Below, in pieces: positions 38,331 to 64,000 of a stretch of 64,000 bases of DNA (position 1 is its first letter; every line of letters begins with the position of its first letter). Made by a program: the position numbers and the translations under genes. This stretch comes from Macrostomum lignano (taxonomy: Eukaryota), in NCBI GenBank assembly GCA_002269645.1, contig NIVC01000106.1:310001-374000 (forward strand), written 5' to 3'. Under the pieces are notes generated by a model. That model had not been told where the DNA came from. It did not search any database and saw only the letters and a list, made by a program, of their open reading frames with translations.

Positions 38331-39681
38331 AGAGGCCCTGGAGCTGGGCCATTGTGGGCACGAGGTTGGCGGCGCGGTTGTTCCGGATTTCGGTCTGGAG
38401 CTCGAGCGGGAGGCGGTTCCAGAGTGCGTAGACGCGGCTGTCGAGGGTGCACGCGAGCTCACCTAGGCGGAGTAGCTGGCCGGTAGCGAGTCGGAGGGCG
38501 TCGGTGTAATTCTCGAGCTCATCCAAGTCGGAGGCGGAGCTGCAGTGAAGAGCGAAAAGGATCTGGAAGAAGGCGTTTTTCTGCTCCTGGGCATCGGCGT
38601 AGTTGGCCTGGAGGACGCGGCAGGCTTCGGCGTAGGCGTTGGGCTGGCAAGCGTCGAGGGCGCCAAGCTTCCGGAGTGCCGAGCCAGAGTGAAGACCGCG
38701 GAGCGCCTCAAACTTATCGACGTCGTTGAGACTGGATTGGTCGACGCGGTAGAGGAAGGCGTTCCAGAACCCGGGGAATGCGGTTGGGTCGGTGCCGTCG
38801 AATGTCGGGAGACGAACCTTCTGGAGAACAGTGGAGTGGATTAGAGCGGCCGGATCGCTATCGCTGGTTGCGGACGACGACTCAGATTTCAGGGCAGGAT
38901 GGGAATTAGCGGCGAGCTGTTGTATGAGCAGCTGATTCTGCTGCATCATGGCGGTCATAGCGGTCAGGAGGGCGTTGATATCGACGGAGGCAGCGGGAGC
39001 TGCTGCAGGGATCGCAGTTGTGGAAGGAGCAGCGGGAAGAGCAGATGTCGCGGCTGCTGAAGCAGCAGGCGGCGGGTCACTGGCTTTGACGTGCGGCTGC
39101 TCCGCGTCGATTGGCGCTTCAGCAGAGGCTGTGCTGTGGTCGTTCTTGGACTGCTTGATCTGGTCGCCAGATAGGTCAGTTGTTGATCGCGTGATAACCA
39201 TGGTAATCCGGACGCTCTGCTACCAATTTGTAGAATAGATTCGTCGAGGAAGAGAGAGGAACCACGCTCTGCTACCAATTTGTGGAAGTTGACAATAAAC
39301 TAATATTGAACGAGCGGTTAGCGGGAAGGAATCAGTAGAAGAGAAGCAGAAGTGAAGGGCAGAAGCCGCGAGTTGAACTTGAATTTATACTAACACAGAG
39401 AACAGGGTAGCTGAAATGTCTGTGGCAAATTAACGGTTATGCTAGTCTGTGGGAAAAGCGTGGTAGACGAAGGGAGCCAGCTAACTGATAAGTACGAGTC
39501 TGTATTGCAAAACAGAAAGTAGAAATATTTGAAGGATGAAATCGCCAAGACCTCGAATTTGACAAACTTGCTCGGATAGCTAATGAAGTCAGTGTTGCTG
39601 CCTGCAAGATAGGTGAAGAATTTCTACTTTCTAGACAAGCAGGTCATTAACATGGAACTCTATCGCATCGCAGAACTGACA
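38331..39681 (-). mobile_element. 5' fragment of a BEL/Pao-like LTR retrotransposon (LTR 39281-39681, PBS, truncated gag)
   Basis: TGTCAG...CCACA LTR; TGGTAGCAGAG PBS (initiator-Met type); gag from ATG 39201 with DUF1759-like LPTFDG...FWNAF...DKFEALR...Y; ends abruptly against the Harbinger remnant. Confidence 0.8.
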
Positions 39682-44987: not shown

Positions 44988-46476
44988 TGCGTAGTGTGAG
45001 GGAACAGAAACATATGGAGCAGGAGGGAGATAGGAAGCAAACGCGCAGGGTAAGGGAGCCACACAGGGCGGTACAGTGAGACACGGGCAGGGGTGGAGCC
45101 GTGCGTGGACAGAGCTGAACGGCATGGTCAGCTGCAGGAATAGGATGATAGAGAGGCGCGGATAGGAGGGACAGAGAGCAGTGTGCAGGGGTAGGCAGCC
45201 ACGCTGGCAGGGAACAGAGGCGCGTGTAGCCAGTTGCAGCCCGGGACAGAGAAGTGTGAAGGGGGCCTGGGACAGAGTTCCGAGCAAGGCACAGAGAGGT
45301 AGGGTCCGGTAGCCATGTATAGACAGGGACCCACGCGAGGGCAGGACAGGGGAGTAGACATGCAAGTTGCATGCAAGGCCAGAGAGGTGTGCGCGGAGGG
45401 AGACAGAGAGCAGTGTGTAGGGGTAGGTAACAGCAAACTTTAGTAGAGGTGCGTGCGGGGACGGAGAAACCAGTCTGAGCGTACAGAGACGTTACAGAGA
45501 GGTACACAAACAGAGAACAAAGCGAGCAGAGCACATGTGTAGGCGCAGAGACGTGAGGGAGAATCGACCAAAACACGCTATGTATTATCAAAAGTTGGTT
45601 TTAGTGCAGCATATTTAATAGTGGGTAGTATAATAGTATGTACATAGTAGGTATAATGGTAGTAATAATAGTAAGTATATTAGCCCAAAAGGTAGGCTAA
45701 AACAGGCTAAACTGTGTGTACGCATCCTCATCACCCCACAAGCCCCCTCTCCCGCCAGATTCACTCTTCCAAACCCTCCTGTATTGCTGTATGAAGGAAA
45801 ATATAGTGTAAAAATACAGATGTTAACCGTCAGACCGCTGAAATCAGGGCACACTAGAGGGGGTTTCGGGGTCTGCATGCTCTATGTAAGCTGCTTGAGG
45901 AGGTTCCAAGGGCGTTGTGAGGGTTTCCATTATGTTTTGAAAAAACTAGGGGCTTAAATACAACGTTTTATTAAAAAAGTAGGTTATTTTAATGAAATAG
46001 CTGACACAATCATTGTCGAGAGTAGAAATTTTTATAAGAAACCAGGCATTTTAGCAAAAATAAACCTTCAAACCACATAAAATTGAATAAAAAGCAGACA
46101 TTTTCAATTATAAACCGCAAGTATTTTAATAGAAAAGTAAGCAAACAAGGCACAAAAGCAGCAAATTTTACCTTTTTTATTTTAATGTTACTGTTAAGGT
46201 AGAGAGTAGAAACTTGTGAGCTGTACGGAGTTAGAAAGTATTAACCATTATGTATCGTATGAATTATTAGTTCAGTACCAGCCATTGGTCAAGCGAGCAT
46301 TTATGAAGTTATTACGAGTGATGAAGGGATAGAGAGCTATATACAGGAAGACAGTATCCTTCTAAACCACCACGAACAGATTGCTAATACAGATAAGCTT
46401 TGTCTGTGTGCAGTATGAGTAAGCGAAGGCGGGGCAAATACTTTTCCACATGCCGGACAGAACAGTATTGTGCTAG
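44988..46476. repeat. Left TIR, outer verified part (pairs with 62512-64000)
   Basis: Constant coordinate sum 108988 (45615/63373, 45128/63860, 46471/62517); probably extends further left. Confidence 0.93.
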
Positions 46477-48312
46477 GATTTCTCTCGAAATCGCGGTACG
46501 TTACTAGTTTTTATCACACCATCCAGATGCGTCAACTAGTCAGCAGTAGTCATTTATATGTTATTAGAACTTACAAACCCAGGTCAGGTAAATATTACAA
46601 AGAGTATATTACGTACACACGCCAACTCCGAATACCAAGCCATACTAGTCTACTTGCAGTGCTCCTGGAGGGAAGGGACGGTCAAGAGTTACACACCAAG
46701 AATGCATTCACACAAAGAGTACACCACTCGAGCCCCGTCCATGCGCCCCGATATGTATGACGCAGGCAACCCTCCCGACATGTATGCCGCAGGCGACCCT
46801 CCCGACATGTACCCAACATGTATGTCGCAGGCGACCCTACTGACATGTACCCCGACATGTACACCCTACCAAATGGCACTCGAGCCACAGGTGCCAAGCG
46901 GCCCCCCGAAATGTACGCCGCGGGCGCCCCCCCTCCCGAGCCGAAGGTACACTCTTCCAATATGAGTGTACACTCTCCCAATACAAGTGTACACTCTCCC
47001 GATATGAGTGTACATCGATTTGTAGTCAACAATACCTATTAACACAAAATTAGGCTAGTGAAAACTACTTATAGTAGGTGAAATTGCGTATATTTACGTA
47101 AAAAGTAAGCAAAACACATATTAATCACATCAGTAGGTGTAAATATCAGGGCATAATACATATTACGAAACATATAGGTGTACGGACATATAGAATTAAG
47201 CATATGGACAGCAAAAACACACAATGTAGGTGCATTTATCGATATTTTGGCAGAAAAGTAGGTGAAATAGACAAAATAGTAGGTATAATTCACAGAACCT
47301 ACTCATTAGTGTAGTAGGCGCTTGTAGATGCTAGTATATTGTAAAACATAGGTTGAAATACACATACGCACAGTAGATACAAGTATAATGCAGGTGCATA
47401 TGCACACACTGTAGATTCGAATTATGTAGATGCATAGGCTAAAATACACACATCGTAGAGACAGAAGCAGGCATAATGCAGGAAAATTATGATACATATT
47501 AGTGCGTAAAGTATCATATTATGACACGCTGTAGCACATATTGACATAATGCAGGGGAAAATATTGACAGAAATAGTACACAATTGTAGAGGTAACAACC
47601 CGCCAACTAGTAAGGGCATCCAGCACTTGTTCAGGTTTTTATTATTTCGAGACGAGTGTCATGCCCCCGCAAGAGATCTTATCAGAAATTTGTTGAACTC
47701 CACTGCAACTCTCCCAGAGCCTCCAAATGCGAGTTTTTAACCCAGGGTCGAGTACAAAGGACCCGCCCACTCTTAACCCCAAGGGGTGATCCTAGCGGAG
47801 ACCAAGTACAGTGCGGACGGAGAGGGATAACAGAAAGCGCTGCACTGCACCAGACCGTGGGGCTGCATTCCTCCCCCGAGGTAGGCGCGTCAGCTCCCAC
47901 TCCTCATTTAACCATCAAGTAAACTAAAGAAGTCAAGCAGAAAGCCTTACTATCACCTGCAGCCAGCACAAGTAAGAGTACTTTCCACTAGAGAGCTATA
48001 GTGCAAGATTCGCGAGCCAAGTTGAAGCACACCAAATTACACTAAAGACATATGTATTAAAAAGCATACCGGCACCTCTACAAAAACACAGTATGTACCG
48101 ATTAAAGTTGCTTTTGGTGCAGTGTATTTAATAAAAAGCAGGTACCTAACACAAAAGTAGGCATCAATGCAGTGCACGGACTAAACTGTATTTACAAACG
48201 CAGGGCAACGAACTACACACAATGTAGCGCATAGACATAATTGTACGCATAAATGTACGCAATTTCCGGTATATAGGACCACATGTACGCAAATGTACAC
48301 AATGTACACAAA

Positions 48313-48389
<77 letters not shown>

Positions 48390-48476
48390 AGGCGTATCCT
48401 GCAGAGCGCATCCTGCAGCGCCGATCGCCGCAGGCGATGGCGCCATCGGCAGGAAGCTCTTGCTGTGAATACGCCT

Positions 48477-48553
<77 letters not shown>

Positions 48554-50391
48554 TTTGTGTACATTGTGTACATTTGCGTACATGTGGTCCTATATACCGG
48601 AAATTGCGTACATTTATGCGTACAATTATGTCTATGCGCTACATTGTGTGTAGTTCGTTGCCCTGCGTTTGTAAATACAGTTTAGTCCGTGCACTGCATT
48701 GATGCCTACTTTTGTGTTAGGTACCTGCTTTTTATTAAATACACTGCACCAAAAGCAACTTTAATCGGTACATACTGTGTTTTTGTAGAGGTGCCGGTAT
48801 GCTTTTTAATACATATGTCTTTAGTGTAATTTGGTGTGCTTCAACTTGGCTCGCGAATCTTGCACTATAGCTCTCTAGTGGAAAGTACTCTTACTTGTGC
48901 TGGCTGCAGGTGATAGTAAGGCTTTCTGCTTGACTTCTTTAGTTTACTTGATGGTTAAATGAGGAGTGGGAGCTGACGCGCCTACCTCGGGGGAGGAATG
49001 CAGCCCACGGTCTGGTGCAGTGCAGCGCTTTCTGTTATCCCTCTCCGTCCGCACTGTACTTGGTCTCCGCTAGGATCACCCCTTGGGGTTAAGAGTGGGC
49101 GGGTCCTTTGTACTCGACCCTGGGTTAAAAACTCGCATTTGGAGGCTCTGGGAGAGTTGCAGTGGAGTTCAACAAATTTCTGATAAGATCTCTTGCGGGG
49201 CATGACACTCGTCTCGAAATAATAAAAACCTGAACAAGCGCTGGATGCCCTTACTAGTTGGCGGGTTGTTACCTCTACAATTGTGTACTATTTCTGTCAA
49301 TATTTTCCCCTGCATTATGTCAATATGTGCTACAGCGTGTCATAATATGATACTTTACGCACTAATATGTATCATAATTTTCCTGCATTATGCCTGCTTC
49401 TGTCTCTACGATGTGTGTATTTTAGCCTATGCATCTACATAATTCGAATCTACAGTGTGTGCATATGCACCTGCATTATACTTGTATCTACTGTGCGTAT
49501 GTGTATTTCAACCTATGTTTTACAATATACTAGCATCTACAAGCGCCTACTACACTAATGAGTAGGTTCTGTGAATTATACCTACTATTTTGTCTATTTC
49601 ACCTACTTTTCTGCCAAAATATCGATAAATGCACCTACATTGTGTGTTTTTGCTGTCCATATGCTTAATTCTATATGTCCGTACACCTATATGTTTCGTA
49701 ATATGTATTATGCCCTGATATTTACACCTACTGATGTGATTAATATGTGTTTTGCTTACTTTTTACGTAAATATACGCAATTTCACCTACTATAAGTAGT
49801 TTTCACTAGCCTAATTTTGTGTTAATAGGTATTGTTGACTACAAATCGATGTACACTCATATCGGGAGAGTGTACACTTGTATTGGGAGAGTGTACACTC
49901 ATATTGGAAGAGTGTACCTTCGGCTCGGGAGGGGGGCGCCCGCGGCGTACATTTCGGGGGGCCGCTTGGCACCTGTGGCTCGAGTGCCATTTGGTAGGGT
50001 GTACATGTCGGGGTACATGTCAGTAGGGTCGCCTGCGACATACATGTTGGGTACATGTCGGGAGGGTCGCCTGCGGCATACATGTCGGGAGGGTTGCCTG
50101 CGTCATACATATCGGGCGCATGGACGGGGCTCGAGTGGTGTACTCTTTGTGTGAATGCATTCTTGGTGTGTAACTCTTGACCGTCCCTTCCCTCCAGGAG
50201 CACTGCAAGTAGACTAGTATGGCTTGGTATTCGGAGTTGGCGTGTGTACGTAATATACTCTTTGTAATATTTACCTGACCTGGGTTTGTAAGTTCTAATA
50301 ACATATAAATGACTACTGCTGACTAGTTGACGCATCTGGATGGTGTGATAAAAACTAGTAACGTACCGCGATTTCGAGAGAAATCCTAGCA
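46471..50391. repeat. 3.9-kb foldback (two ~1.93-kb inverted arms, 71-bp GC-rich apex at 48398-48468) inserted in the left TIR
   Basis: Mirror ORF pairs (47069/49571, 47306/49367, 47422/49245); (CA)n and (TG)n flank the apex; a few substitutions and 1-bp indels between arms. Confidence 0.93.
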
Positions 50392-50525
50392 AGTAGTAGG
50401 GGAAATGTGGACTCTGCCGCAGGAATTTCCGTGGGAAAACCACGGGCCTATGTGTGTAAACATAGCGCCTATGTAAATGCATTGGTGGACTCTGCCGCAG
50501 GGAAAGCCATGGAAATTCCATGGGG
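50392..50525. repeat. Left TIR, inner part (pairs with 62377-62511)
   Basis: AGTAGTAGGGGAAATGTGGACTCTGCCGCAGG...CCATGGGG is the reverse complement of the right copy, with a few mismatches. Confidence 0.88.
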
Positions 50526-50589
50526 CCTTAGTGAGAGAACATAGGCCTATGTTTTTCTATTGCTGTATGTCTGCTGCAGTGGTTTAGTC

Positions 50590-50596
50590 TATATAA
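50590..50596 (+). promoter_or_regulatory. TATA box candidate (TATATAA) upstream of the PC4-like gene
   Basis: About 65 nt before ATG 50660, just inside the TIR. Confidence 0.45.
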
Positions 50597-50659
50597 GGAC
50601 CAAAAAAATCTCTTTGATTCATGAAAAATCGAATTTTTTTTTCTGTTAGAGTTTAAGTC

Positions 50660-51424
50660 ATGGACATCGGCGAAGGATATAAACTCCAAATACAGGAGTA
50701 TGAAGGAGTTATGTTCATTGCTATCAGAAAATTTTACCGACATGGCAGCACTGCGAGTTTGAAACCTGGAGTCCCCGGCTTCAATTTGAACATCCGTCAG
50801 TGGGAGAAGCTCAAGGAGTTGAAGCGATCACTTGTCAAGGCGGCCTTGGACAAACAGCCAAAGGTTGTCAAACTCGGCTTCGATAAGTTCATCGAAGTGA
50901 AAAACGGCATTATCTGGTTAAAGCGATTGCCGGAGGACTGCTGCGACGAGTTTCTTAAGCGGAACACCGTGCCGCTGACACCGCCGCTGTGGCGAAAGCT
51001 GTGGCAGTACGCGGATTGGATCGACGAGCAGCTATCGGCTCCACGTGAGATTTCCGATGCATACGAGCTGGAGTCGGGATCTTCCTCCGACAGCATCGAA
51101 AATGAAGACGATGCTGGCGAAAACGCGGAAGAGACCAAGCCGGTAGTGAAGGCGGAGGACGATGCTGCTGCTGCTGCTGGCGAGGCTGGCATGCCATCCA
51201 ATCTGCAAATCGACACAGCGTTTGCCACTTCAACGCCTCTGCAACTGACCAAGCCAGCAGCTGGAGCGATTCCTCGGCAGGACACTGATCTGCAAGAGGA
51301 CCCAGTCTGGTACCAGTTCCGAGCTCAAGCAGCCGCCGCTGAGAACGCCAGGAAACGCAAGCAGCCGCCATTCGCTCTGCGCAGATTGGATGCCATGAAG
51401 CTGCCCAGGCCGTGCTTCGACTGA
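50660..51424 (+). CDS. PC4/Sub1-like ssDNA-binding protein, probably two PC4 domains plus an acidic tail
   Basis: DIGEGYKLQIQEYEGVMFIAIRKFY...KPGVPGFNLNIRQWEKLKE matches the PC4 pattern; weaker second copy LGFDKFIEV...VPLTPPLWRKL. Confidence 0.78.
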   Translation: MDIGEGYKLQIQEYEGVMFIAIRKFYRHGSTASLKPGVPGFNLNIRQWEKLKELKRSLVKAALDKQPKVVKLGFDKFIEVKNGIIWLKRLPEDCCDEFLKRNTVPLTPPLWRKLWQYADWIDEQLSAPREISDAYELESGSSSDSIENEDDAGENAEETKPVVKAEDDAAAAAGEAGMPSNLQIDTAFATSTPLQLTKPAAGAIPRQDTDLQEDPVWYQFRAQAAAAENARKRKQPPFALRRLDAMKLPRPCFD

Positions 51425-51591
51425 TTGCAGACCCTCTGACATTGAGACAAACTCTGTGCTACGAGCTATTTATCCAGACCTGCTTTCCATCTCTTTGTTT
51501 GAAAAAATATATATGCTTGCTTTCACATGCGCTATGCATTTTCAATGTCTTAAGAAAACCTAAAAATAAAAATGTTTCTTTGTTTCCGAAA

Positions 51592-52659
51592 ATGGAAAAA
51601 ATTTATTTCAACCCAAATCAGCCTGCGAGCTATTGCAGTTCTTCAAAACTGCAACCTGAACTGCGAAAAAGAGGCGAGCATATTGGAGTCAAGAGCATTG
51701 AGCAGTGGCTAAGTCAGCAGCCAGTACACACTCTGCATAAGCCAGCTAGAGTACGATTTCCAAGGGCGCCAATAATAGTGAGAGCCATTGATGATCAGTG
51801 GGAGATGGATCTGGTGGAAATGATTCCATTTGCAAAGTATAATCGCGGGCATAAATACATTCTCACCTGCATTGATGTTTTGTCTAAATTTGCAATGGCC
51901 AGAGCACTGAAGTCTAAGAGCGCGGCAGAAGTGAAATCTGCGTTTGAGAGCATGCTGAAGAGCTCAAAGCGGCAGCCGCGCACTGTCCGCACAGATCAGG
52001 GAAAGGAGTTTGTCAACGCAATTTTTCGCCAGTTCTGCATAGACCGGGGGATTCTGGCGTTTCCAACTAGCAGTGAGCACAAAGCAGCCATAATTGAAAG
52101 ATGGAATCGAACTTTAAAAAGCAAGATGTGGCGTTACTTTACTCACAACAGCACTCTACAATGGCTTGATGTGCTGCCTAAACTGGTCAAGTCCTATAAC
52201 AATACTTTCCACAGAAGCATCAAGACTACACCAATGAATGTCAGCAAAGCAAACGAGACTGAAGTGTGGATGAACCTTTATGATGGGAAAGCGATTGAGA
52301 CAGTTGAGAAACTGAGAAAACCGAAGTTCTGTGAAAACCAATCAGTGCGGATTTCCAATGCACCCAGACTCTTCAGGAAGGGATACAAGGCGAACTGGAG
52401 CGAAGAGGTGTACACCATAGTGTCTAGGGCACCAAAGCATTATCCCTACATGTACAGGATTCGAGACATGAAGGGGGAAGACATAAGAGGCCTCTTCCAC
52501 GAGCATGAGCTGCAAGCTGTTCCGGACTCGCAGCGGCTGTATGTAATCGAGAAGGTTCTGAAGACTGAGAAGCGGAAGGGTAAGATCCGATATCTCGTCA
52601 AGTGGGCCGGCTACAAGTCCACTGACTGGGTGGATGAGAAGGACTTAAGAAAAGTGTAA
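51592..52659 (+). CDS. Polinton retroviral-like integrase with C-terminal chromodomain
   Basis: QWEMDL / TDQGKEF / IERWNRTLK DDE triad; IEKVLK...YLVKWAGY chromodomain; likely start MEKIYFNP. Confidence 0.95.
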   Translation: MEKIYFNPNQPASYCSSSKLQPELRKRGEHIGVKSIEQWLSQQPVHTLHKPARVRFPRAPIIVRAIDDQWEMDLVEMIPFAKYNRGHKYILTCIDVLSKFAMARALKSKSAAEVKSAFESMLKSSKRQPRTVRTDQGKEFVNAIFRQFCIDRGILAFPTSSEHKAAIIERWNRTLKSKMWRYFTHNSTLQWLDVLPKLVKSYNNTFHRSIKTTPMNVSKANETEVWMNLYDGKAIETVEKLRKPKFCENQSVRISNAPRLFRKGYKANWSEEVYTIVSRAPKHYPYMYRIRDMKGEDIRGLFHEHELQAVPDSQRLYVIEKVLKTEKRKGKIRYLVKWAGYKSTDWVDEKDLRKV

Positions 52660-52689
52660 GATACCGACATTGTGCAGCCATTCCCAACT

Positions 52690-53498
52690 ATGAGAAGCAT
52701 CATCATTTGTAGCGAAAATGCTGAAGGTACTCCTAGTGACTTTCATTTTCACCTGCCTTCATCTATTTACTTGGATCGAAATGTGGACTATGAGGCAGGT
52801 CTGGCTGAAATCCATCTGCCTGCTGCATGGTTCAATGTTGACGAGCCTTACTGCTTCACTGTCTCAGATGGAAGAGAGCATGAGGCCCTGGTTCTTCAAC
52901 CCGGACGCTTTGCTAGAGTGGAGGAACTGGTTGAGCGCATGAATGAGCTGCTGGCCAACTCTGAGTCACTGTTCTTCGATGCAATGAGCGAAAGGGAGTC
53001 TGAAATGGAAGCTGATGAGTCCGGTTTAATGGGGCGAGCAGCGCTAGAGATATTGGCATAAAGTTTGAAATCCAAGAGTTGAGAACAGTAGTGCTCAACA
53101 ACACGGCTCGAGCAGAATTGTTCCTTCCATCAAGTAAAATTCTGCAGTGGCTGGGATTCGGAAACCAGCCTGTGAAGATCCCACCCGGACGGCAAGTGTC
53201 ACTCTGCTGCATCGGTTGTCCGCCCACCAACCTGATCAACTTGCACTGCAGCATTGTGGAGCGAACAAACTGTAACTGGAACTCCGTGCTGCGAACTGTG
53301 AGCATGTCATCCGATGTCGAATGGGGCAGCTACATGAGCAAAGTGTTTAAGAAAGCAATTTTCTTCCCGATTCAGAAAGCTAATTTTCTACATGGCATTA
53401 GATTTCAACTGCGTGACATCTTTGGCTACTCACTGACTGCTCGGAGCAGCAGCCCTGTTCTGCTCACAGTTCATATTCGGGAAAGGCTAATACAATGA
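52690..53498 (+). pseudogene. Minor capsid (penton) protein, one frameshift near 53040
   Basis: DFHFHLPSSIYL...YEAGLAEIHLP..WFNV N-terminus; C-terminal INLHCSIV...LRTV...FQLRD...LTVHIR in another frame. Confidence 0.75.
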
Positions 53499-53905
53499 AC
53501 TACCAACAGCTGATTCGTCAGTATTCAGGGACTCTGGCAGGAAGCCAAAAGCCGGCGCTCTATGGCTGTGGGAGTTTTCCAGGAATCATGACTTACCAGC
53601 CTCCTCCAGAAGCTTCCACAAAGTCAATATCGCTATCAAAGCCAGCCCATACCACCGCCAGCGGTAGCAGCAGCAACAGCAGAAGCAATAGAAACAGACC
53701 AAAGCAGCGACTAGTCAAACAGGGCAGTAAGAAGCAGACAAAAAAGAAGAAAAAGAGTAAGACGGAGAAATCACCGAAAAGAAGCCAGTCAGGGCGAAAT
53801 AAACCTAAGAAAGGGAGGTCTAAAACTCAAAGCAAGAAAACAGGCAAAGGAAAGCAAAAAGTGAGCAAAAAGACTGTGAAACGTGTTCTGGACTCGCTCT
53901 CATAG
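53495..53905 (+). CDS. Small Lys/Ser/Arg-rich protein, probable DNA-condensing core protein
   Basis: 136 aa with a highly basic C-terminal half; ATGA overlap with the penton stop; sits between penton and MCP. Confidence 0.65.
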   Translation: MNYQQLIRQYSGTLAGSQKPALYGCGSFPGIMTYQPPPEASTKSISLSKPAHTTASGSSSNSRSNRNRPKQRLVKQGSKKQTKKKKKSKTEKSPKRSQSGRNKPKKGRSKTQSKKTGKGKQKVSKKTVKRVLDSLS

Positions 53906-53907
53906 CA

Positions 53908-55191
53908 ATGGCTTACGGATTCAACCCGAGACTCGATTTGTTCAAGTCCCCCATGCTGCAGACTGCCATTGAAAAATCCACATATGTTGATATTCACCCC
54001 GTGAACTCTATTGCTACTAACTCACCTATTGAATTCGACTGTCATCCATCGGCTGATGAGTACACTGATCTGCTGAGCTCATTCCTGTATATTCGCTGTC
54101 GCCTAGTCCGGCTTGGCGGGGCTTTGATGAGGGAGGAGGTTCGAAATGCCGATGGAGTTGTCACTGAGCGCAGAGACAGTGGGGTGCACCCAGAAAACTT
54201 TGTCCTGTCTACGGCATTCTCAGATGTAATCGTGAGCATCAACCAGCGCATTGTCTCAGGCGGAGACCAGCTCTACCCCTACCATGCCTACCTAAAAGCT
54301 CTCATGGGCTCATCCGATGCTCAGCAGTTAAAGTTCTACCCCGCCGGATTCCTGGAACCCGAAACTGCTGCTGAGGGGCATGCCGAGAGACACAGGGAGT
54401 CCCGCTGGGTGGAGTATGCGGGACCGCTGCTCAGCGACATCTTCCAGTGTCCTGTTCTGCTGCTGAACAATTTACACCTGCACATCAAGCTGATGCCCAG
54501 CGATACTGCATTCGCCATCCGAACCCCAGATGAGAACAACACAGCCTACCGAATGGAAATCTCCCACTGCATTCTGAACCTGCGCCGAGTCAAAGTGGCG
54601 CCTCACATCAGCCTGGCGCATGAGCAGGGACTGACCAATCAGAACGCACTCTACCCCATCGAGCGAACCGAAATGCAAAACTTTATTCTACCCCAGGGAA
54701 TTCAGTCAAAAAATATTGAAGGATTCACCCATGGCAAACTGCCGAAGTTCGTTATGCTGGTCTTCGTGAACCACCGAGCCTTCAATGGCCATCACCATTC
54801 CAGCCCCTTCGAGTTCCAGAGCTTCAACCTCAGCCAGCTAGCACTAAAGAAAGGTGGTGAAGCCATGTGCCACGCTGCATTTGCACCTGAGAATAATTCA
54901 TTCGTGAGAGAGTACTTGCACTACCTGAAAAGCTGTCAGTCAGCCAGCCCTACCAACTCGGTTCCGTGGGTCCCCTACCAGTTGTTCTCCAACGGCAACA
55001 CAGCTTTCGCATTCGATCTCACGCCTGAGGGAGCGGCCCTGTGGTACGGACAGAAGGAGGGCAATTTGCGGCTGGAGATTCGCTTCCGACAGGCCCTGGA
55101 GGAGCCTGTATCTCTGATTGTTATGTGCCTGTATGACTCACTGATTGAAGTCACCAAGCACAGGGAGATTCTGCTAGATTTTCCATCCTAG
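53908..55191 (+). CDS. Major capsid protein (double jelly-roll)
   Basis: 427 aa; LDLF...QTAIE..YV...P....SPIEF, YTDL..SFLY, YPYHAYL, A.YP, P....LVFV...AF.G....PF.F, Y...F..G....AFDLTP motifs typical of Polinton MCP. Confidence 0.9.
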   Translation: MAYGFNPRLDLFKSPMLQTAIEKSTYVDIHPVNSIATNSPIEFDCHPSADEYTDLLSSFLYIRCRLVRLGGALMREEVRNADGVVTERRDSGVHPENFVLSTAFSDVIVSINQRIVSGGDQLYPYHAYLKALMGSSDAQQLKFYPAGFLEPETAAEGHAERHRESRWVEYAGPLLSDIFQCPVLLLNNLHLHIKLMPSDTAFAIRTPDENNTAYRMEISHCILNLRRVKVAPHISLAHEQGLTNQNALYPIERTEMQNFILPQGIQSKNIEGFTHGKLPKFVMLVFVNHRAFNGHHHSSPFEFQSFNLSQLALKKGGEAMCHAAFAPENNSFVREYLHYLKSCQSASPTNSVPWVPYQLFSNGNTAFAFDLTPEGAALWYGQKEGNLRLEIRFRQALEEPVSLIVMCLYDSLIEVTKHREILLDFPS

Positions 55192-55214
55192 GAGTACGCT
55201 GGCGCAACGCTAAT

Positions 55215-55712
55215 ATGGATGCTTTTCAACTGCTTAAACTGGCTAAAAGCTTTTTGCCACAAAATAACTGTTTAATTATTGTCTTGAATTCAATAAATAA
55301 AACATCTTATGCTTTAAACATTATTCAGCGAGCAACTCTCAAAAGAAATTTATCTCGATGTAAGTTTATTTTCTTTCTGCTTCAGTACGGCTCGTCCTTT
55401 GGTCACTGGGTGGTTTGTTATGCTAATAAGGAGAATTCCATAGAACTCTTTAACTCTCTGGGCTGGGACTCCAGCACTTTAGAGATCATTCACAGAGCAC
55501 TGAAATCCTTTTGGTATTCTCCATTCTACTTACGTAGCAATGTGAATCGAATTCAGAGCTGCGACTCTGCTAAATGCGGTTTGTTCTGTCTCTTGTTTGC
55601 CTATCAAAAGTTTCGTTTCAAGCGCTCGTTTGAGTGGGTTCTGCGGCACCTCCATGCAAATCAGCAGAGCCACTTGAATGAAAGAATTCTGCAAAGGTTT
55701 AGAGTTGCTTAA
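55215..55712 (+). CDS. Adenain/Ulp1-like maturation cysteine protease
   Basis: GHWV...FNSLG...RIQ...KCGLFC; the catalytic Asp position reads Asn. Confidence 0.85.
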   Translation: MDAFQLLKLAKSFLPQNNCLIIVLNSINKTSYALNIIQRATLKRNLSRCKFIFFLLQYGSSFGHWVVCYANKENSIELFNSLGWDSSTLEIIHRALKSFWYSPFYLRSNVNRIQSCDSAKCGLFCLLFAYQKFRFKRSFEWVLRHLHANQQSHLNERILQRFRVA

Positions 55713-55765
55713 GAAAAAAGAAATTTAATTAGACTTTTAAAATCAAGGATTTAGCTCAACAGGCG

Positions 55766-56415
55766 ATGGAAACACGTGAGCGGATAAACTGTTATGATTG
55801 CGCCTGCGACAGGGAAGCTGCATGATTGTCAGCGGGCCTACAAATGCAGGAAAGACAACCTTCGTGAAACATCTGATACAATACAAGGATGTCCTGTTTG
55901 ATGTGAAGCCTGGGAGAGTTCTGTGGTACTACGGATTTCACAAGCAGCACACTCTGAGCTCAGCAGTCTCGGCGTGCACTGCAGCAGGGATTTCCCAGCA
56001 GTATCGAGACCGCACTGAGACCCAATGACCTGGTTGTATTTGATGACCTGATTGAAGAAACTTCCAATTCTGCTGCAATGCGAAATGTTTTCACTGGAAT
56101 TGCCCATCATTTGCCCTGCTTTCTGGTTATGCTGACCCAAAATGTATTTTTTAAAGGGAAGGAGTTGCGAACAATGAGTCTGAATGCGATGTACTTTGTG
56201 ATCATGAAGAACCCCAGAGACCAGCTGCAGATTGCGGCGCTGGGCAGGCAGTGTTTGCTGAGAAGCCCGGCTTTCTGCTGTCAGTGTTCAAGCACGTGAC
56301 ATCGCACGGCAGGGGAGCCTACCTGCTCCTGGATTTTCACCCTTCCACCCCTGATGAGCTGCGGGTCCGGGCTCGAATCCTGCCCAATCAGCGACCCCAC
56401 CTGGTTTACACTTAA
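55766..56415 (+). pseudogene. FtsK-like packaging ATPase with about three frameshifts
   Basis: Walker A GPTNAGKT, Walker B VVFDDL, LTQNVF...RTMSLNAMY...KNPRD and YLLLDFHP lie in different frames. Confidence 0.88.
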
Positions 56416-56432
56416 GAATAACAGCCGAGATT

Positions 56433-56780
56433 TTGGCATTTGTTCTATATTCTGCAACACAAATGATAATGGAAACCTTTGACTCACATGAAAGTTTGTT
56501 TGATGTTCTCGCGTCACCGAAATATTCCATCAGCTTTAAACGTCTGTTGATCAGAGCGGGTCCAAAAGCCGTACGTGAATTTCTCATTGAGGCCTGCTAC
56601 AACCTATTGCAAAACACTCTGTCGTTCTCACTCACTGAAAAGGCAGCGCTGGTGAAGCAAAAGCAAATAATCCGCAAAATTTCTACACATAGAAGAACTG
56701 CGGATCTGCTAAATACGGGTTTTATCAAAATTCTCTACATTCTAATAAAGCTAGTGAAGAAAAAGAAGCAAAATGAATAA
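56433..56780 (+). CDS. Conserved small Polinton protein
   Basis: LIEACYNLLQNTLSFS..EKAAL...IIRKI pattern resembles a small ORF common in Polintons; co-oriented in the cluster. Confidence 0.6.
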   Translation: MAFVLYSATQMIMETFDSHESLFDVLASPKYSISFKRLLIRAGPKAVREFLIEACYNLLQNTLSFSLTEKAALVKQKQIIRKISTHRRTADLLNTGFIKILYILIKLVKKKKQNE

Positions 56781-57495
56781 GTTCTCAGAAATGGTTCTGA
56801 TCCCCAAGTCAGAGTACGACATGCTCACACAGAATTTGAAGCCAGTCGAGTCTGAAATGGACACTGCTGTGAGATATGCGCAGAGGAAATGCAATGATAT
56901 TTTGCTTGCCGAGGATTGCCCAGACGATGTGAAAGCTGCCATGTACCATGATGCGATGAAGAGTTTGCTGGCCAAGCGCAAGCGGACTGGAAAGGATGGT
57001 GCGGTACCTGCGAGTGATGCAAAGATGCTGAAAACTGATATTGCACAAAGCAGCTGGGGGGAAAAGATCACCCAATCCGTGCCGCAGAAGTTTAAAGCGA
57101 GAGCCCGCAGTCTATGGGCCATCCTATCTGGCAATCCCTCTCTGATTCAGGTGTCCGAAAATGGCGAGGCGCAAATTTCTGGGAAGACAATACCCTCCTC
57201 AAACATCCTGGATTTGTTTCACAGTGCGGTGAGGGATTCGAAATGTGCCAGCGAGCCGGTAGGCTGGAGTGAGTTTGTCTCATTGCTTCAAGACAAAAAG
57301 CTTAACATCCCAGCTTCGGCTATAGGAAAGTCAGTAAGGCAGCTAATTTCTAAACCGGCTGTTTCTCCAGAGACCACCCCTGCACATCATACAGTTAAGG
57401 GATTCGGGAGTGGGAGAGCCTGGCTACACCTGAGCAGGAAAAAAAACTATTTAAGAAGGGGAACTGAGTCGGCTTCCCGACATCTTGCGTCTTGA
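56773..57495 (+). CDS. Conserved Polinton hypothetical protein (240 aa)
   Basis: NGE..ISGKTIPSSNILDL....V.....EPVGWSEF...L....IP.S.IG motif; start overlaps the previous stop. Confidence 0.65.
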   Translation: MNKFSEMVLIPKSEYDMLTQNLKPVESEMDTAVRYAQRKCNDILLAEDCPDDVKAAMYHDAMKSLLAKRKRTGKDGAVPASDAKMLKTDIAQSSWGEKITQSVPQKFKARARSLWAILSGNPSLIQVSENGEAQISGKTIPSSNILDLFHSAVRDSKCASEPVGWSEFVSLLQDKKLNIPASAIGKSVRQLISKPAVSPETTPAHHTVKGFGSGRAWLHLSRKKNYLRRGTESASRHLAS

Positions 57496-57507
57496 AACCA
57501 TCCGATC

Positions 57508-58021
57508 ATGAACTATATTGACTTCCAAGGCTTCCCACGCGAGAGATCGAGCAGAGATTTCGTTGTGAAGGAGCTGGCCATTGCCCAAGTCCGGGCTGGC
57601 AGTTACCATATCACTCATCACGTGTACGCCTCTCCGTTCTCATGGGACAGAATCTCACCTGAGATGCAAGTACATTACAGAAAGCTCTCAAAGAATTTGC
57701 ATCATTTCAAGTGGACAGATGGATCCCGACCGTACATGCATTTGGCTAATGACATTCTAAACATTGCTTACGGTCCCACCTGGACAAGCGGGGTGAAAAA
57801 GTCCATCTTTCTGACTGAGCTGCTTGGCAGACAGGTGTACAACCTAGAGGATCTGGGATCACCTTTGATTCAAGCATCTGATACTGGTTGTGCAGTGAAA
57901 AATGTATTACTGTACTACAACTGGCTGAAACCGAAGTTCTGTATCAACTTAAGAAGCGAGGTGTGCCCGCACCACTCAAAAGCTCGCAAAGACAGCACCA
58001 CTGACAGAAAGGACTCTCTAA
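57508..58021 (+). CDS. DEDD/DnaQ-like exonuclease-type Polinton protein; a frameshift probably lets it read past a TAA-ATG junction to 58353
   Basis: IDFQGF...FVVKELAI, HFKWTDG..PY, VYNLEDLGSP, CAVKNV motifs. Confidence 0.6.
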
Positions 58022-58585
58022 ATGAGTACACCTGCGACAGCCCTGCGAGTGACCAATCTGGTCGGCGGCGTGGATCTGAGACTTGCTGGAGACAGGGGTG
58101 CCCAGTTGCCTCTGCGGGAACTGGCTCTCAGCATGGCTCATGTCATCTATCGCCCCGTCTGGCCCCGAGTGCTTATCAAGAGGATGCGGAGTCCCAGAGT
58201 GACTCTATTGCTCTATCCGACTGGACAACTGAGTATCTGTGGCGCCCGGAGCTACTCGGCCTCAGTCAGGGCCGCTCGTCGCTTCGTGGCTATGCTGCAT
58301 CGCAGAGTGCCTGCTCAACTGCTGCCTCATCAAACTGTGCATGTGCGGATTAAAACTTTTACTGCGCATGGGAAAATTGACTTGTGCAGAGCACTTCCCC
58401 TCGCTAATCTTGTGAACACTTTACCAAGTGCTCAATATGAGCCAGAGTCATTTTCTGCTTTGATCTGCAAACTAAGCTTCTGCAAATGCCTGCTTTTTCA
58501 CAATGGCTCATTCGTTCTCAGTGGTGCAAAAACAATGAGCATGCTAATTTCCGACTTTTCCTTGCTTGTCCGTTTTCTGTGCTAA
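58022..58585 (+). CDS. TATA-binding-protein-like protein (core saddle only, 187 aa)
   Basis: Repeat 1 VTNLV...YRPVWPRVLIKRMRSPRVTLLLYPTGQLSICGARS...AARRF; repeat 2 YEPESFSALIC...LLFHNGSFVLSGAK. Confidence 0.85.
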   Translation: MSTPATALRVTNLVGGVDLRLAGDRGAQLPLRELALSMAHVIYRPVWPRVLIKRMRSPRVTLLLYPTGQLSICGARSYSASVRAARRFVAMLHRRVPAQLLPHQTVHVRIKTFTAHGKIDLCRALPLANLVNTLPSAQYEPESFSALICKLSFCKCLLFHNGSFVLSGAKTMSMLISDFSLLVRFLC

Positions 58586-59302
58586 TAATAACCATATGTT
58601 TCAACAATTAAATAAAAAGACGACAGCTGAACAAAAATATAATAATCTTGCATGCATATACCACGTATTAAGATGCGTGCATTTTAATCAATATACCTGA
58701 AAATCAGACTTCGATCGACTTTTTCTTTATTTTATTAACTGAAATCGCAATATTAGTTTGAGTATAGAAAATTTAATCAGACCACAACCAACTCAAGAAA
58801 AAAAGCACACCCATCACTCAGATTATGCACTGCTAAGACAAATAAAAACGAACAAGAACTAGCAGAAATGAAAAAGGAAGCCAATATTTTTCAGATAATC
58901 ATTGGATAATGGTTACAAAAAATATGAGTAGCAAAGCTAGCAAAGATAAAAAAGGACAGTAACTCAGTTCATTCAATTGTGCAAAAATTCAAGGATAGTA
59001 AAAAAGAGGAAAGCCAGACCAATATGACGCAAATTATTCCAACATGGCTTTCACAAGTTCGTATTGAAATAAATCTGGAACAACTCAACTCGAAAATGTT
59101 ACGTTCAGTTAGTTGCTTAGAGACTACAAATATGTAACTAACTGAATTGGCTCTATTCGTTCCAGCATTGTCATTATCATCATCATCCATCATTATCATC
59201 ATCATCATCATTCAGATTAATTAAACCACTGAAACAATTCATGGAGTACATAAGTAAAAGTCAATAAATTTCAACGCCAAGGTTACACAGATGTGCAAAG
59301 CA

Positions 59303-60226
59303 TCACTCTAAGCAGTCCGCTGTCCTTTTCGGACTACCCCTGATTAACAGCTGAAAGTGGCCGAACGGAAGACTTGAATTCGAGCCAGTCCACGCTCGCT
59401 TGTCCTCCCAGATACTGAGAGCGAGCTTACGTTGCTCAATGGTGAAAACGCGATGTTTCTCACTTCCAATTCGACGAACAGTGAGCGACAGCTTTGAAGC
59501 CCCCTTGAAAATCTTGACGTAGTCGTCGTGGGAGACTTCATTCTTCAGCACGCTTCGTTGGATGCCTTTTGCTTTTGCTTTGCATGCCGCCGAGCTTTCA
59601 GCGAGGAAAGAATAGAGCTTGGGCCTTAGCAGCACCCACTCAATCTGTTGCAGTCCACCAGCTTCATCTTTAATGCAGCCTAGCTTGGCCTTTAGCCGAT
59701 TCGAGAAAGGAGGATGATTAGTGAGAAAATTGGAGGTGTCCAAGAGGCCTTCGGCATGCAGGATTGGCAGCACTTCTCTCTGCAAACTAAGGTTCTCTAA
59801 GCTCAAAAACAACGAGTCTGTATCGCCACCGCAAACTCGAACTCTTGCTCCATCACGGAATTCTAGCATGGGTTTTATTTTGTCATAGTAAAGTCGATAC
59901 ATGATGATCTTGGAGCGATCTAGAACACACTGCCCCATGAAAATTGGCCGATCAAGAGTTACTTCGCGCTTTTGAAGCTCAAAGATGCTGAGTGACGGCG
60001 TAATGATTGTGAATGATGCGACATTTGGTTGAGAAGAAACAGTCTTGGCTTTTTTCTTGTCACTGCACACTCTGATGTCCCGCCGCTTGCGCACGTTCTC
60101 CATTGTTTTGCCAAACAGGGAGTTATTTTTCAGTTTATAGAAATCCTTCTCGAAATCATTTTTCGCCATAGAGCGCTTCTCGCTATTCATCTTAATGTAG
60201 TCCGCGAAGACAGGTTCTTCGCTACA
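59303..60226 (-). pseudogene. C-terminal remnant of protein-primed DNA polymerase B
   Basis: KLKNNSLFGKT (motif B), GDTDSLF (motif C), LGCIKDE, LRPKLYS, KAKGI; motif A, exonuclease and terminal-protein parts are absent. Confidence 0.9.
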
Positions 60227-60486
60227 TTATTAGAAGCACAAGTTAAAGAAGGAGATTGCAAACCCAACCAGAATCAAACCCAATCTGCATTCACACCCAA
60301 GCACAGCTTGATCAACGCGCACTGCCTGCATAAATATGAACTTTAAAAATAGCAATGAGATGTTGAAAAGAAAAATAAACATTATTCACTTTTTCAATAT
60401 ACGGATAATCATGCATCTCGCAATTTAATTCAACACAAAATGTTGCTAAATTAATATTTAACGACTGGTACATTAGAATTATTAGT

Positions 60487-61398
60487 TTAGAATTGAGAAT
60501 TGCTCAGGCGAATACGGAAAGCCCCTCCCAAGTCAATCCAATATTCACCCGTAACACTGTTGGGCAGAACCAGCTGGATGCAGAGAGGTGCTGGCTGCTG
60601 CACTTCATTAGCGGCCGCAGGCTGAACCTCAGTCGGTGGCGGCGGTGGTGGAGGCGCAGGGCCCGAGTCCATATCGCGAATCACGTCGGACAGGCTGACT
60701 TCGACCGCAGGCTGAACCTCAGTCGGTGGCGGCGGTGGTGGAGGCGCAGGGCCCGAGTCCATATCGCGAATCACGTCGGACAGGCTGACTTCTGCCACCA
60801 TCCTGGCACGCTCCATATTTTTTCCGGGAACAGGGATTGCACGCCGCTGCTGCTGCTGTTGCATTTCTTGCTGCTCCTGTGCTTCAGGCTCACCATCGAG
60901 GTTCTCGAAGAAAGCGGTGTCCAGCTCATTCAGCTCGAAGTCAGGGGTGCCACCTCCATCAGCAGCATCAAGCAGGGGAGCTCCGACATCACCATCAAGT
61001 AGAGCAGCAGAAGCAGCAGCAGGCTGGGCGTTGGGCTGGTCACCAGTGTTCGTTGATCGGCCGCATAAGCTCGTGATAACTTGACTCAAAGTGCTCACCG
61101 GCTCTCGAATGCGTTCTGCCGCCCTGTTGCGTTCCTCTTGACGTGCAACTTCCAGAGCAGTAATGCGTGCCTGCTCGCGGTCCTCAGCAGAGCTCCAGTT
61201 AACAGTCGAATGATTTTTATGCCTTCTGATTTGGCCTCTAACGGTGAAGAGCTCAACGGACTGGCATTCATGGCATAGTAGCCATCGGGTGACACTGCAG
61301 CCTTCATTCGCTACATGGTGCTTTAGTCCACCGAGCATACTAATATTGCAGGTGACACACACCTCATGAACGTAGGATGGGCACCGAGAATGGCTCAT
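60487..61398 (-). CDS. 303-aa protein with Cys/His zinc-binding clusters, acidic/Gln-rich middle and a duplicated 30-aa Pro-rich unit
   Basis: CVTC...H and CHEC...H..H clusters; 90-bp direct repeat (60621/60711); TATA-like motifs near 61504-61538. Confidence 0.6.
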   Translation of the reverse strand: MSHSRCPSYVHEVCVTCNISMLGGLKHHVANEGCSVTRWLLCHECQSVELFTVRGQIRRHKNHSTVNWSSAEDREQARITALEVARQEERNRAAERIREPVSTLSQVITSLCGRSTNTGDQPNAQPAAASAALLDGDVGAPLLDAADGGGTPDFELNELDTAFFENLDGEPEAQEQQEMQQQQQRRAIPVPGKNMERARMVAEVSLSDVIRDMDSGPAPPPPPPPTEVQPAVEVSLSDVIRDMDSGPAPPPPPPPTEVQPAAANEVQQPAPLCIQLVLPNSVTGEYWIDLGGAFRIRLSNSQF

Positions 61399-62376
61399 GG
61401 TTTAAAATTTAATCAAGGGTTTTTTGTGAAAATTTGAAATTTCGAAGTCCGTTTAAATATCAACAAAATCTATTTTTAATGGCTCAGTAGAAGTTTTCAG
61501 TCCTTATATCCAAATCACCAGGCAATATCGCCTATATACACACACACAGATATGTTTACACGTTACATATGTGTATGCACTAATTATTTTCTTACCGTTA
61601 TTGAACGATAATAATAATAAAACTGATAACATTCCCCCCGTCGCGTGCATCAGATAGTTCTAAAGACCTCCACCCCAGACCTGCACCCCACTTCCCCGCG
61701 GCCAAATCAGCAGTATCAAGAAAAACAATAACAAGGCAATAAACGGCTCTTTGCAAGCTCACTTTCACAACAAATTCAGTCCAATTTGCGAGACTCGTAC
61801 TAAAGTGCGGAGGAACTCATGAACATAGGCCTATGTATTCCCACTGCCAACAAAGTTTAAATATTGTGGAGATCGGAAGCCAGGTTCGCCCAATTTTCAA
61901 TTAACTATGGCTAATGTACACTAGAGAAGTTTTTTACTATTTTTAGAGAGTCAGTTTTGGGCTTCCCAGGAACTTGTGCTGCTTTCCCCTGCGGCAGAGT
62001 CCACCAATCCATTTACATAGAGCTCTATTCGGCTTTTTTCATTGAAGATCGAGTAGTAGGAAAATGAAAAGCGTCAAATATTTCTTTTTTTTGTCTAATT
62101 AGCTTAATTACTTCTCAAAGGATAAAAACATTTTCATTTAAAATCTAGAAACTAGTATTCTTTTGAAATGTTTGAAATGTTATTTCAAATTCGTCCTTTC
62201 GTTTCTATAGAAATACGATAAAAGATCGAGAAAATTTCTCGAACCGAATTCCAGAATCGGATCGCGGTTTTGGAACCGACTATGAAAACGGAACAGACAA
62301 TATGAAAAGCTTCGAACCGATTCTGGTCCTGGAATCGGTCATATGAAAAGCCCGTATATTTCGCTCTCCGACCCCC

Positions 62377-64000
62377 CCCCATGGAAATTCCGTGGCTTTC
62401 CCTGCGGCAGAGTCCACCAATGCATTTACATAGGCGCTATGTTTACACACTATAGCCCCGTGGTTTTCCCACGGAAATTCCTGCGGCAGAGTCCACATTT
62501 CCCCTACTACTCTAGCACAATACTGTTCTGTCCGGCATGTGGAAAAGTATTTGCCCCGCCTTCGCTTACTCATACTGCACACAGACAAAGCTTATCTGTA
62601 TTAGCAATCTGTTCGTGGTGGTTTAGAAGGATACTGTCTTCCTGTATATAGCTCTCTATCCCTTCATCACTCGTAATAACTTCATAAATGCTCGCTTGAC
62701 CAATGGCTGGTACTGAACTAATAATTCATACGATACATAATGGTTAATACTTTCTAACTCCGTACAGCTCACAAGTTTCTACTCTCTACCTTAACAGTAA
62801 CATTAAAATAAAAAAGGTAAAATTTGCTGCTTTTGTGCCTTGTTTGCTTACTTTTCTATTAAAATACTTGCGGTTTATAATTGAAAATGTCTGCTTTTTA
62901 TTCAATTTTATGTGGTTTGAAGGTTTATTTTTGCTAAAATGCCTGGTTTCTTATAAAAATTTCTACTCTCGACAATGATTGTGTCAGCTATTTCATTAAA
63001 ATAACCTACTTTTTGAATAAAACGTTGTATTTAAGCCCCTAGTTTTTTCAAAACATAATGGAAACCCTCACAACGCCCTTGGAACCTCCTCAAGCAGCTT
63101 ACATAGAGCATGCAGACCCCGAAACCCCCTCTAGTGTGCCCTGATTTCAGCGGTCTGACGGTTAACATCTGTATTTTTACACTATATTTTCCTTCATACA
63201 GCAATACAGGAGGGTTTGGAAGAGTGAATCTGGCGGGAGAGGGGGCTTGTGGGGTGATGAGGATGCGTACACACAGTTTAGCCTGTTTTAGCCTACCTTT
63301 TGGGCTAATATACTTACTATTATTACTACCATTATACCTACTATGTACATACTATTATACTACCCACTATTAAATATGCTGCACTAAAACCAACTTTTGA
63401 TAATACATAGCGTGTTTTGGTCGATTCTCCCTCACGTCTCTGCGCCTACACATGTGCTCTGCTCGCTTTGTTCTCTGTTTGTGTACCTCTCTGTAACGTC
63501 TCTGTACGCTCAGACTGGTTTCTCCGTCCCCGCACGCACCTCTACTAAAGTTTGCTGTTACCTACCCCTACACACTGCTCTCTGTCTCCCTCCGCGCACA
63601 CCTCTCTGGCCTTGCATGCAACTTGCATGTCTACTCCCCTGTCCTGCCCTCGCGTGGGTCCCTGTCTATACATGGCTACCGGACCCTACCTCTCTGTGCC
63701 TTGCTCGGAACTCTGTCCCAGGCCCCCTTCACACTTCTCTGTCCCGGGCTGCAACTGGCTACACGCGCCTCTGTTCCCTGCCAGCGTGGCTGCCTACCCC
63801 TGCACACTGCTCTCTGTCCCTCCTATCCGCGCCTCTCTATCATCCTATTCCTGCAGCTGACCATGCCGTTCAGCTCTGTCCACGCACGGCTCCACCCCTG
63901 CCCGTGTCTCACTGTACCGCCCTGTGTGGCTCCCTTACCCTGCGCGTTTGCTTCCTATCTCCCTCCTGCTCCATATGTTTCTGTTCCCTCACACTACGCA
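62377..64000. repeat. Right TIR of the Polinton (runs off the window)
   Basis: Reverse complement of 50392-50525 joined directly to 44988-46476. Confidence 0.93.

Follow-up and report, generated by a model that had tools for sequence, protein, structure and literature searches.

What a mobile element without an RNA polymerase would do with a transcription factor of its own is the question raised by a TBP-like gene in the flatworm Macrostomum lignano. In Polintons, the timing of capsid-gene expression and the existence of a true viral cycle are both open, and a dedicated TBP paired with a late-type promoter box would provide a direct test. The gene lies in a stretch of 64,000 nucleotides, referred to here as the window, and a first-pass annotation of the sequence had read it as a Polinton gene. 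The analysis below finds the Polinton TBP gene to be real, conserved and widespread, and to come with a candidate for a cognate promoter code. Beyond what that annotation had noticed, the locus includes an overlap between the TBP gene and an upstream 281-aa open reading frame (ORF), a PC4-like protein, and a box shared upstream of most genes of the block.

The element and its TBP-like gene

The TBP gene is encoded by a 12.1-kb Polinton (50392-62511), as had been proposed. Its terminal inverted repeats, 134 nt long, end in AGT repeats, and the 6-bp target duplication CTAGCA flanks the element on each side. Terminal repeats, target duplication, integrase, protease and ATPase identify the element as a Polinton/Maverick, and its capsid labels are given by position and mutual homology. 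It sits inside one arm of a near-perfect host palindrome (window 44988-64000, centre ~48433), and the mirror arm retains the empty target site at 46471-46476; the insertion therefore postdates the palindrome. The segments 44988-46476 and 62512-64000 were considered as terminal repeats and rejected, as they are the arms of the host palindrome that received the element. A second terminus-like word, AGTAGTAGG, is found on the plus strand at 62052, inside the element and ~460 nt from its right end. Elsewhere in the window are an ankyrin-repeat ORF built of 216-nt repeats with 85-96% identity (35404-36888, minus strand) and two features unrelated to the TBP finding: a DDE_Tnp_4 fragment (37675-38055, plus strand), which we take to be Harbinger-like, and a DUF1759 gag-like ORF (38272-39201, minus strand).

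Table 1. Features of the Polinton, in window coordinates
Feature	Position	Strand	Remarks
Left terminal inverted repeat	50392-50525	+	Starts AGTAGTAG; CTAGCA 5′ of it at 50386-50391
Canonical TATA box TATATAAGG	50590-50598	+	Before PC4-like gene; putative early-type promoter
PC4-like gene, 254 aa	50660-51424	+	ssDNA-binding/coactivator fold; Pfam PF02229, E 3.6e-6
Box CTTAAGAA	51549-51556	+	Before integrase
rve integrase with C-terminal chromodomain	51592-52659	+	Pfam
Box CTTAAGAA	52644-52651	+	In integrase 3′ end, before putative minor capsid gene
Putative minor capsid gene	52690-53490	+	Labelled by position only; no Pfam match; frame apparently broken here
Basic ORF, 136 aa	53495-53905	+	Nearest box TTTAAGAA at 53346, 147 nt upstream, outside the tested interval
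Box CCTAAGAA	53804-53811	+	Before major capsid gene
Putative major capsid protein, 427 aa	53908-55191	+	No Pfam match; position and homology to the gene of other elements
Adenain-like cysteine protease	55215-55712	+	Pfam PF00770, E 7.7e-5
Box CTTAAGAA	55708-55715	+	Overlaps protease stop codon, before ATPase
Packaging ATPase homologue	55766-56415	+	tblastn pieces; frame apparently broken in window copy
Box CTTAAGAA	56411-56418	+	Before 105-aa ORF; overlaps apparent ATPase stop
105-aa ORF	56463-56780	+	Conserved, family unknown
240-aa ORF	56773-57495	+	Conserved, family unknown
Box TTTAAGAA	57450-57457	+	Before 281-aa ORF
281-aa ORF	57508-58353	+	Tail covers 109 codons of TBP gene
Box CTTAAGAA	57948-57955	+	Upstream of TBP gene, inside 281-aa ORF
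TBP-like gene, 187 aa	58022-58585	+	ATG-to-TAA ORF, two repeats
AATAAA	58611-58616	+	26 nt past TBP ORF end; putative polyadenylation signal of block
Protein-primed DNA polymerase B remnant	59303-60211	-	Residues 629-917 of a 955-aa relative
Cys/His-rich ORF, 303 aa	60487-61398	-	TATAAGG upstream at 61502-61508 (-)
Right terminal inverted repeat	62377-62511	-	Followed by CTAGCA at 62512-62517

The polymerase of this copy is reduced to its C-terminal ~290 aa, with the N-terminal two thirds absent, so the copy is polymerase-defective and a non-autonomous derivative; the polymerase of a related family-A copy matches residues 1-952 of the family-B enzyme. The truncated layout (window 59303-61398) is identical at a second locus, L046, and a non-autonomous derivative carrying the TBP gene has therefore multiplied. 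Family B has a homologue of the PC4-like gene, as do 19 of 27 loci of group M, defined below, and by eye each protein chain (window 50660-51424; L092:1302-1793) seems to contain two PC4 repeats in tandem. The N-terminal part of the 281-aa ORF resembles unnamed arthropod clusters (0.97) and, weakly and as a lead only, Maelstrom (0.88). The element, its TBP ORF included, is covered by contigs of four runs whose RNA origin is a guess, and these are uninformative on expression.

The TBP-like ORF is intact, has the two repeats expected from the first-pass annotation, lies in the same orientation as the integrase-capsid block, and has no N-terminal extension. It matches Pfam PF00352 in two stretches (E 3.3e-21; 75.3 bits against a cut-off of 22.9), and 35 of the 36 PDB matches listed are TBP-containing structures (E ≤ 4.4e-9), the best being archaeal and eukaryotic TBPs. 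The predicted structure has a pLDDT of 95.6 and superimposes on human TBP (1cdw) with a TM score of 0.82 and an rmsd of 1.9 Å; the 97-row alignment behind it includes cellular TBPs, so the model leans on them, and a single-sequence model (pLDDT 43.9) was too poor to use. A TAA immediately precedes the ATG at 58022, as had been noticed, but it is not conserved: other subfamilies have 4-26 open codons 5′ of the TBP start.

Phenylalanine wedges, central asparagines and the TFIIB stirrup have textbook roles in TBP. In yeast numbering, which we take to be correct given that host TBP carries the expected residue at 26 of 26 checked positions, the protein keeps N69 (N12), E186 and E188 (E140, E142), F190 (F144), F207 (F159) and L205. 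It has changed F99>P48, F116>Y65, V122>S, T124>C, N159>T112, V161>T114, P191>S and V203>K. Its wedge set is accordingly P48, Y65, F144 and F159, and the canonical four phenylalanines and two central asparagines are not found. The earlier reading of this set as W, Y, F, F is right for the last three residues and wrong for the first, as two MAFFT alignments place W47 in the R98 column and P48 in the F99 column; the retained stirrup YEPE (Y139-E142) and the lost second asparagine had been read correctly. E186 and E188 are invariant in all 14 family A and B sequences. The product is a member of the TBP-fold family and not a canonical cellular TBP, and its residue pattern supports an altered DNA-binding face together with a retained TFIIB stirrup.

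The first 332 nt of the TBP gene are overlapped, in another frame, by the 281-aa ORF. In all 10 family-A copies this upstream frame is free of stops across 106-110 TBP codons (chance ~0.01-0.04), and in all 5 family-B copies (L067:7525-8406) across 121-128 (chance <0.005). Synonymous divergence in family A is much lower in the overlapped half, reflecting either double coding or recombination.

Breadth, selection and origin

Searching the host genome with the TBP-like protein gave 152 matches, which are not copy numbers, with 150 of 235 candidates scored; 94 of the 150 listed genome rows are stop-free and near full length, with 71-100% identity. Another Polinton gene lies beside the TBP gene in 50 of 52 loci examined, the two exceptions being broken fragments. 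All four Polinton families found in this genome (A to D) encode a TBP-like protein. Family B is a full Polinton with a 955-aa polymerase, a PC4-like gene and the same overlap of TBP and upstream ORF; its TBP is ~35% identical to that of family A and gave 24 near-complete matches. Families C and D had been chosen as negative controls, and they too carry the frame, in 7 of 9 and 4 of 4 contigs, respectively (in the other two family-C contigs the stretch examined does not include that end of the element), leaving no TBP-less Polinton family found in the same genome as a control.

The C and D frames (L178:1145-1699; L182:4727-5260) have no ATG at their start. At L178 a pyrimidine-rich AG stands just 5′ of the frame and suggests splicing at this point. 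The family-D frame is overlapped by an upstream ORF with a canonical TATA box, and the family-C frame (L213, minus strand, 2545; L206, minus strand, 3289) continues stop-free into a P-loop sequence, ~470 aa open in all, where the extension presumably resembles a nucleoside kinase. Residue 186 is D in family C, and family D is without F207.

A profile search returned family A- and B-like proteins from metagenome sources and many short divergent TBPs, one group of which includes multi-copy oyster proteins annotated 'TBP 2-like'. Scanning with this group gave 82 loci, of which 2 are viral and 80, the best of 101, come from metagenomes. Of the 82, 50 have one or more Polinton core genes (29 of the 40 that are at least 4 kb long), and 19 have a PC4-like gene. 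The scan used the peptide YEPELFP, and conservation of positions 186-191 in these loci is by construction. The 27 best metagenome and viral loci are referred to as group M, and 25 other loci with core genes as group O. Multi-copy 170-aa 'TBP 2-like' annotations, such as those of Crassostrea virginica, may be Polinton genes rather than host paralogues. Viral-contig scans with the family A/B alignment and with a second short-TBP alignment detected no relative, and a third detected two giant-virus-like loci; a scan of prokaryote genomes gave one chance-level match of 25 aa, and alignment of the most divergent short TBPs yielded no usable pattern.

The gene is under purifying selection. Values of dN/dS are 0.06-0.35 in family A, measured on the non-overlapped half where computable and with several pairs saturated, and 0.14-0.72 in family B, where the signal is weaker. 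The protein is 28% identical to host TBP, and AU tests on 38 rows reject its grouping with host TBP or with animal TBP (p 0.0004 each); grouping with TRF2 is not rejected (p 0.19). TRF2 is not grouped with it in a 69-row tree, and its residue pattern differs, the wedge columns of host TRF2 reading Y, R, H and F. That tree omits 36 of 105 rows that were near-duplicate, partial or redundant. In it, all 32 Polinton-located proteins fall on one side of a 98/89 branch, away from cellular TBP, TRF2 and archaeal TBP; also on this side are 20 rows whose context is unknown, two giant-virus-like contigs among them. Given the long branches, a single origin of Polinton TBPs is no more than likely. The TBPs of the two giant-virus-like contigs (L110, L112) keep canonical DNA contacts, and these contigs possibly represent a donor group, or else their placement reflects long-branch attraction. 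Profile search and phylogeny had been suggested as checks on the first-pass annotation, which described a captured basal factor; an element-encoded TBP fold with an altered DNA face is supported, and a recent capture from this host is not. In the host, neither the TBP gene nor the TRF2-like gene has introns over the core, and the assembly contains each of them three times (L031:2210-2866; L032:1842-3014).

A shared upstream box and its variants

Most genes of the capsid/integrase block share the box YWTAAGAA, which is strand-specific and mostly located 40-75 nt 5′ of the ATG. Its core TAAGAA occurs 20-110 nt upstream in 7 of the 10 block genes, and 7 of the 9 TAAGAA sites of the block fall in such pre-start intervals, which make up 12.7% of it. 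The motif was first noticed by eye and its enrichment computed afterwards; the placement has p 1.5e-5, top of 2984 hexamers and marginal after correction. No box was found in the tested 20-110 nt before the protease, 240-aa and basic genes, the protease lacking it in all five family-A upstream regions. Where the box lies inside the 281-aa ORF, conservation of its codons is no more than weakly unusual: all 7 copies also agree at 16 of the 46 comparable codons. Canonical TATA boxes precede the PC4-like gene (8 of 8 upstream regions inspected) and the polymerase-side genes, and TAAGAA precedes most block genes. Neither terminal repeat contains TAAGAA: the nine plus-strand sites all fall within the gene block, and both minus-strand sites are internal. 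Stop codons were rejected as the origin of the TAA, as no annotated stop coincides with 23 of 26 family-A sites or with 39 of 48 group-M sites, and TAANNN words other than TAAGAA are much less frequent.

The dominant box differs between element lineages: CTTAAGAA in family A, TATAAGYA in C, TATAAATA in D, YGTAAGAA in group M and YATAAACA in group O. TAAGAA is the top upstream hexamer in family A (26 observed, 3.9-4.0 expected) and again in the distant elements of group M (43-46 observed, 14.8-15.3 expected). It ranks third in family B (7 against 1.7), where canonical TAAAAR is enriched about alike (8 against 2.6) and the signal is therefore weak. Corresponding counts are 25 against 5.0 for TAAGYA in family C, 14 against 3.6 for TAAATA in family D, whose box is a canonical TATA variant, and 54 against 14.0 for TAAACA in group O; sites of one group do not count as independent observations, and the C, D and O patterns were picked after de novo ranking. 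Families C and D inhabit the same host as A and B and have no excess of TAAGAA (2 against 1.4 and 0 against 0.5), so the box follows the element and not the host. Eight partial Polinton contigs (4-16 kb) without a TBP match gave a weak signal for canonical TAAATA (10 against 4.1) and no TAAGAA excess (3 against 3.6).

With the six groups taken together, the interval 30-59 nt before an ATG contains 91 non-stop sites, compared with 3 on the opposite strand; a further 26 sense sites are less than 30 nt from the first ATG, so the cut-off is not sharp. The box precedes the TBP gene itself in 5 of 5 distinct upstream regions of family A, 0 of 22 in group M, 0 of 1 in family B and 2 of 21 in group O. 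In group M, whose TBPs have S, T or C at residue 205, 27 of 46 sites carry a G at box position 2; in family A, which keeps L205, none of the 26 sites does. Yeast TBPm3 (I194F, V203T, L205V) reads TGTA, according to the accessible part of PMC1636458, and the apparent link between residue 205 and box position 2 parallels it, as a single evolutionary contrast that is in effect one comparison. The occurrence of YWTAAGAA before 7 of 10 block genes, and of a dominant box for each TBP lineage even within one host, are new here.

A possible late-gene factor among known systems

The reading favoured here, with a probability of about 0.7, is by analogy with the TATT system of herpesviruses: the TBP-like protein would be a late-gene specificity factor that recruits host TFIIB and Pol II. 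The terminal genes, namely the PC4-like gene and those of the polymerase side, would start from ordinary TATA boxes through host TBP. The element TBP would then bind the variant box (YWTAAGAA in family A) at TATA distance before the integrase, capsid and ATPase genes and their neighbours, kinking DNA mainly through its intact C-terminal phenylalanine pair and recruiting host TFIIB and Pol II through the YEPE stirrup; in family A, the box before the TBP gene would add positive feedback. Redirection of host Pol II had been proposed for this locus before, and the matching upstream box now lends it support, with recruitment itself inferred. The chances are about even for a broader proposal, namely that flatworm and animal-associated metagenomic elements form a large, undescribed Polinton branch in which an ancient TBP lineage has co-evolved with its own box, giving each family a private, orthogonal late code on host Pol II and one flatworm genome several TBP/box pairs. 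These pairs would be a natural series of altered-specificity TBPs and evidence of a staged viral life cycle.

Four other explanations were weighed. The boxes might be weak TATA variants read by host TBP or TRF2, with the element protein as a decoy for TBP inhibitors or TFIIB that aids the element or damps host transcription. Such a decoy is unlikely: loss of F99 and N159 could indeed weaken DNA binding, the family-D box is canonical and the stirrup is better conserved than the DNA face, but three different boxes occur among four families in one host, and N159>T/S and V161>T/S recur in distant lineages, unlike random decay. It is also quite unlikely that box specificity is set by another element protein (105-aa, 240-aa, 281-aa or PC4-like), with the TBP-like protein serving as an unselective scaffold for a small pre-initiation complex of viral type. 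EBV BcRF1 offers a precedent, binding TATA and TATT equally in vitro and requiring partners (accessible text of PMC4893493); the overlap locks the TBP gene to the 281-aa ORF in families A and B, and TAAGAA is common to A, B and M though their TBPs are ~20-35% identical. However, tblastn, with its limited sensitivity, found a homologue of the 281-aa ORF beside TBP in 0 of 27 group-M loci and no PC4-like match in group O, and the box has the distance and about the length of a TATA box.

Very unlikely is a role of the protein in bending DNA at the terminal repeats for replication or packaging, with the PC4-like protein as single-strand binding protein and the boxes serving something else. A PC4 fold suits strand-displacement replication, and the TBP and PC4-like genes adjoin in family B and group M; the absence of TAAGAA from both terminal repeats and the retained TFIIB stirrup count against this role. 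The last candidate, a functionless host TBP retrocopy nested in the element as a passenger, would resemble the present gene in structure given the intronless host TBP, and was refuted: identity to host TBP is low, the AU test rejects host grouping, the gene is under purifying selection and present in four families, and the check for a nested retrocopy found neither an A-run of at least 8 nor flanking direct repeats longer than 6 nt. Its probability is close to nil.

If the protein is a late-gene specificity factor, a herpesvirus-like solution would have been arrived at in a distant virus group. Polintons would then also provide natural variants of TBP specificity, a property for which the engineered TBPm3 is among the best-known examples.

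The protein shares the two-repeat saddle and residues N69, F190, F207, E186 and E188 with cellular TBP and TRF2/TLF (PF00352). It differs from them in F99>P, N159>T, V161>T, T124>C and P191>S, and also in having no N-terminal extension and in residing on a mobile element at high copy number. Many giant DNA viruses encode their own RNA polymerase. TBPs of giant DNA viruses and mirusviruses are likewise virus-encoded and give the best viral structure matches (E 8e-11 and weaker), at 12-20% identity among the top matches; those of the giant-virus-like contigs L110 and L112 have canonical DNA-contact residues, unlike Polinton TBP.

In its terminal repeats, 6-bp duplication, integrase, protease, ATPase, capsid genes and pPolB, the element resembles the Polintons, Mavericks and adintoviruses of Starrett et al. 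2021 (PMC8502044, accessible text). The first-pass annotation had placed TBP outside the usual Polinton core genes, and the rarity this implies is not supported: the gene is common in Polintons, and the Fig. 5 legend of that paper already includes the label 'TBP'. The available text mentions it once in the main body, without analysis, and gives no promoter box, breadth or selection for TBP, all three of which are provided here. In openly accessible text, no published analysis of Polinton TBP or its promoter box was found, and the label occurred in the accessible Polinton literature of the same scope in this paper only. A term look-up found neither TBP nor TATA in 10.1101/2024.03.18.585575, 10.1101/2023.08.22.554363, 10.64898/2026.06.19.733378 and PMC8097293; PC4 in PMC11662393 and TBP in PMC10675990 concern unrelated matters in the parts available.

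The closest functional parallel is with the late activators of beta- and gamma-herpesviruses (EBV BcRF1, KSHV/MHV68 ORF24, HCMV UL87), which combine a TBP-fold protein with a variant TATA box before structural genes in viruses that also encode no RNA polymerase of their own (PMC4893493, accessible text). Herpesvirus TBP-like proteins are ~10% identical to TBP according to that text, compared with ~26% for the Polinton TBP core. They act in a six-member viral complex (accessible text of PMC6541308), whereas the Polinton protein is a bare 187-aa core with a TFIIB stirrup. A single herpesvirus protein, ranid herpesvirus ORF75 (E 6e-4), is among the 50 viral fold matches listed. By analogy, Polinton TBP would work like the herpesvirus TBPs without being placed in their family, and where herpesviruses use a TATT box, the box of Polintons differs from one element lineage to another.
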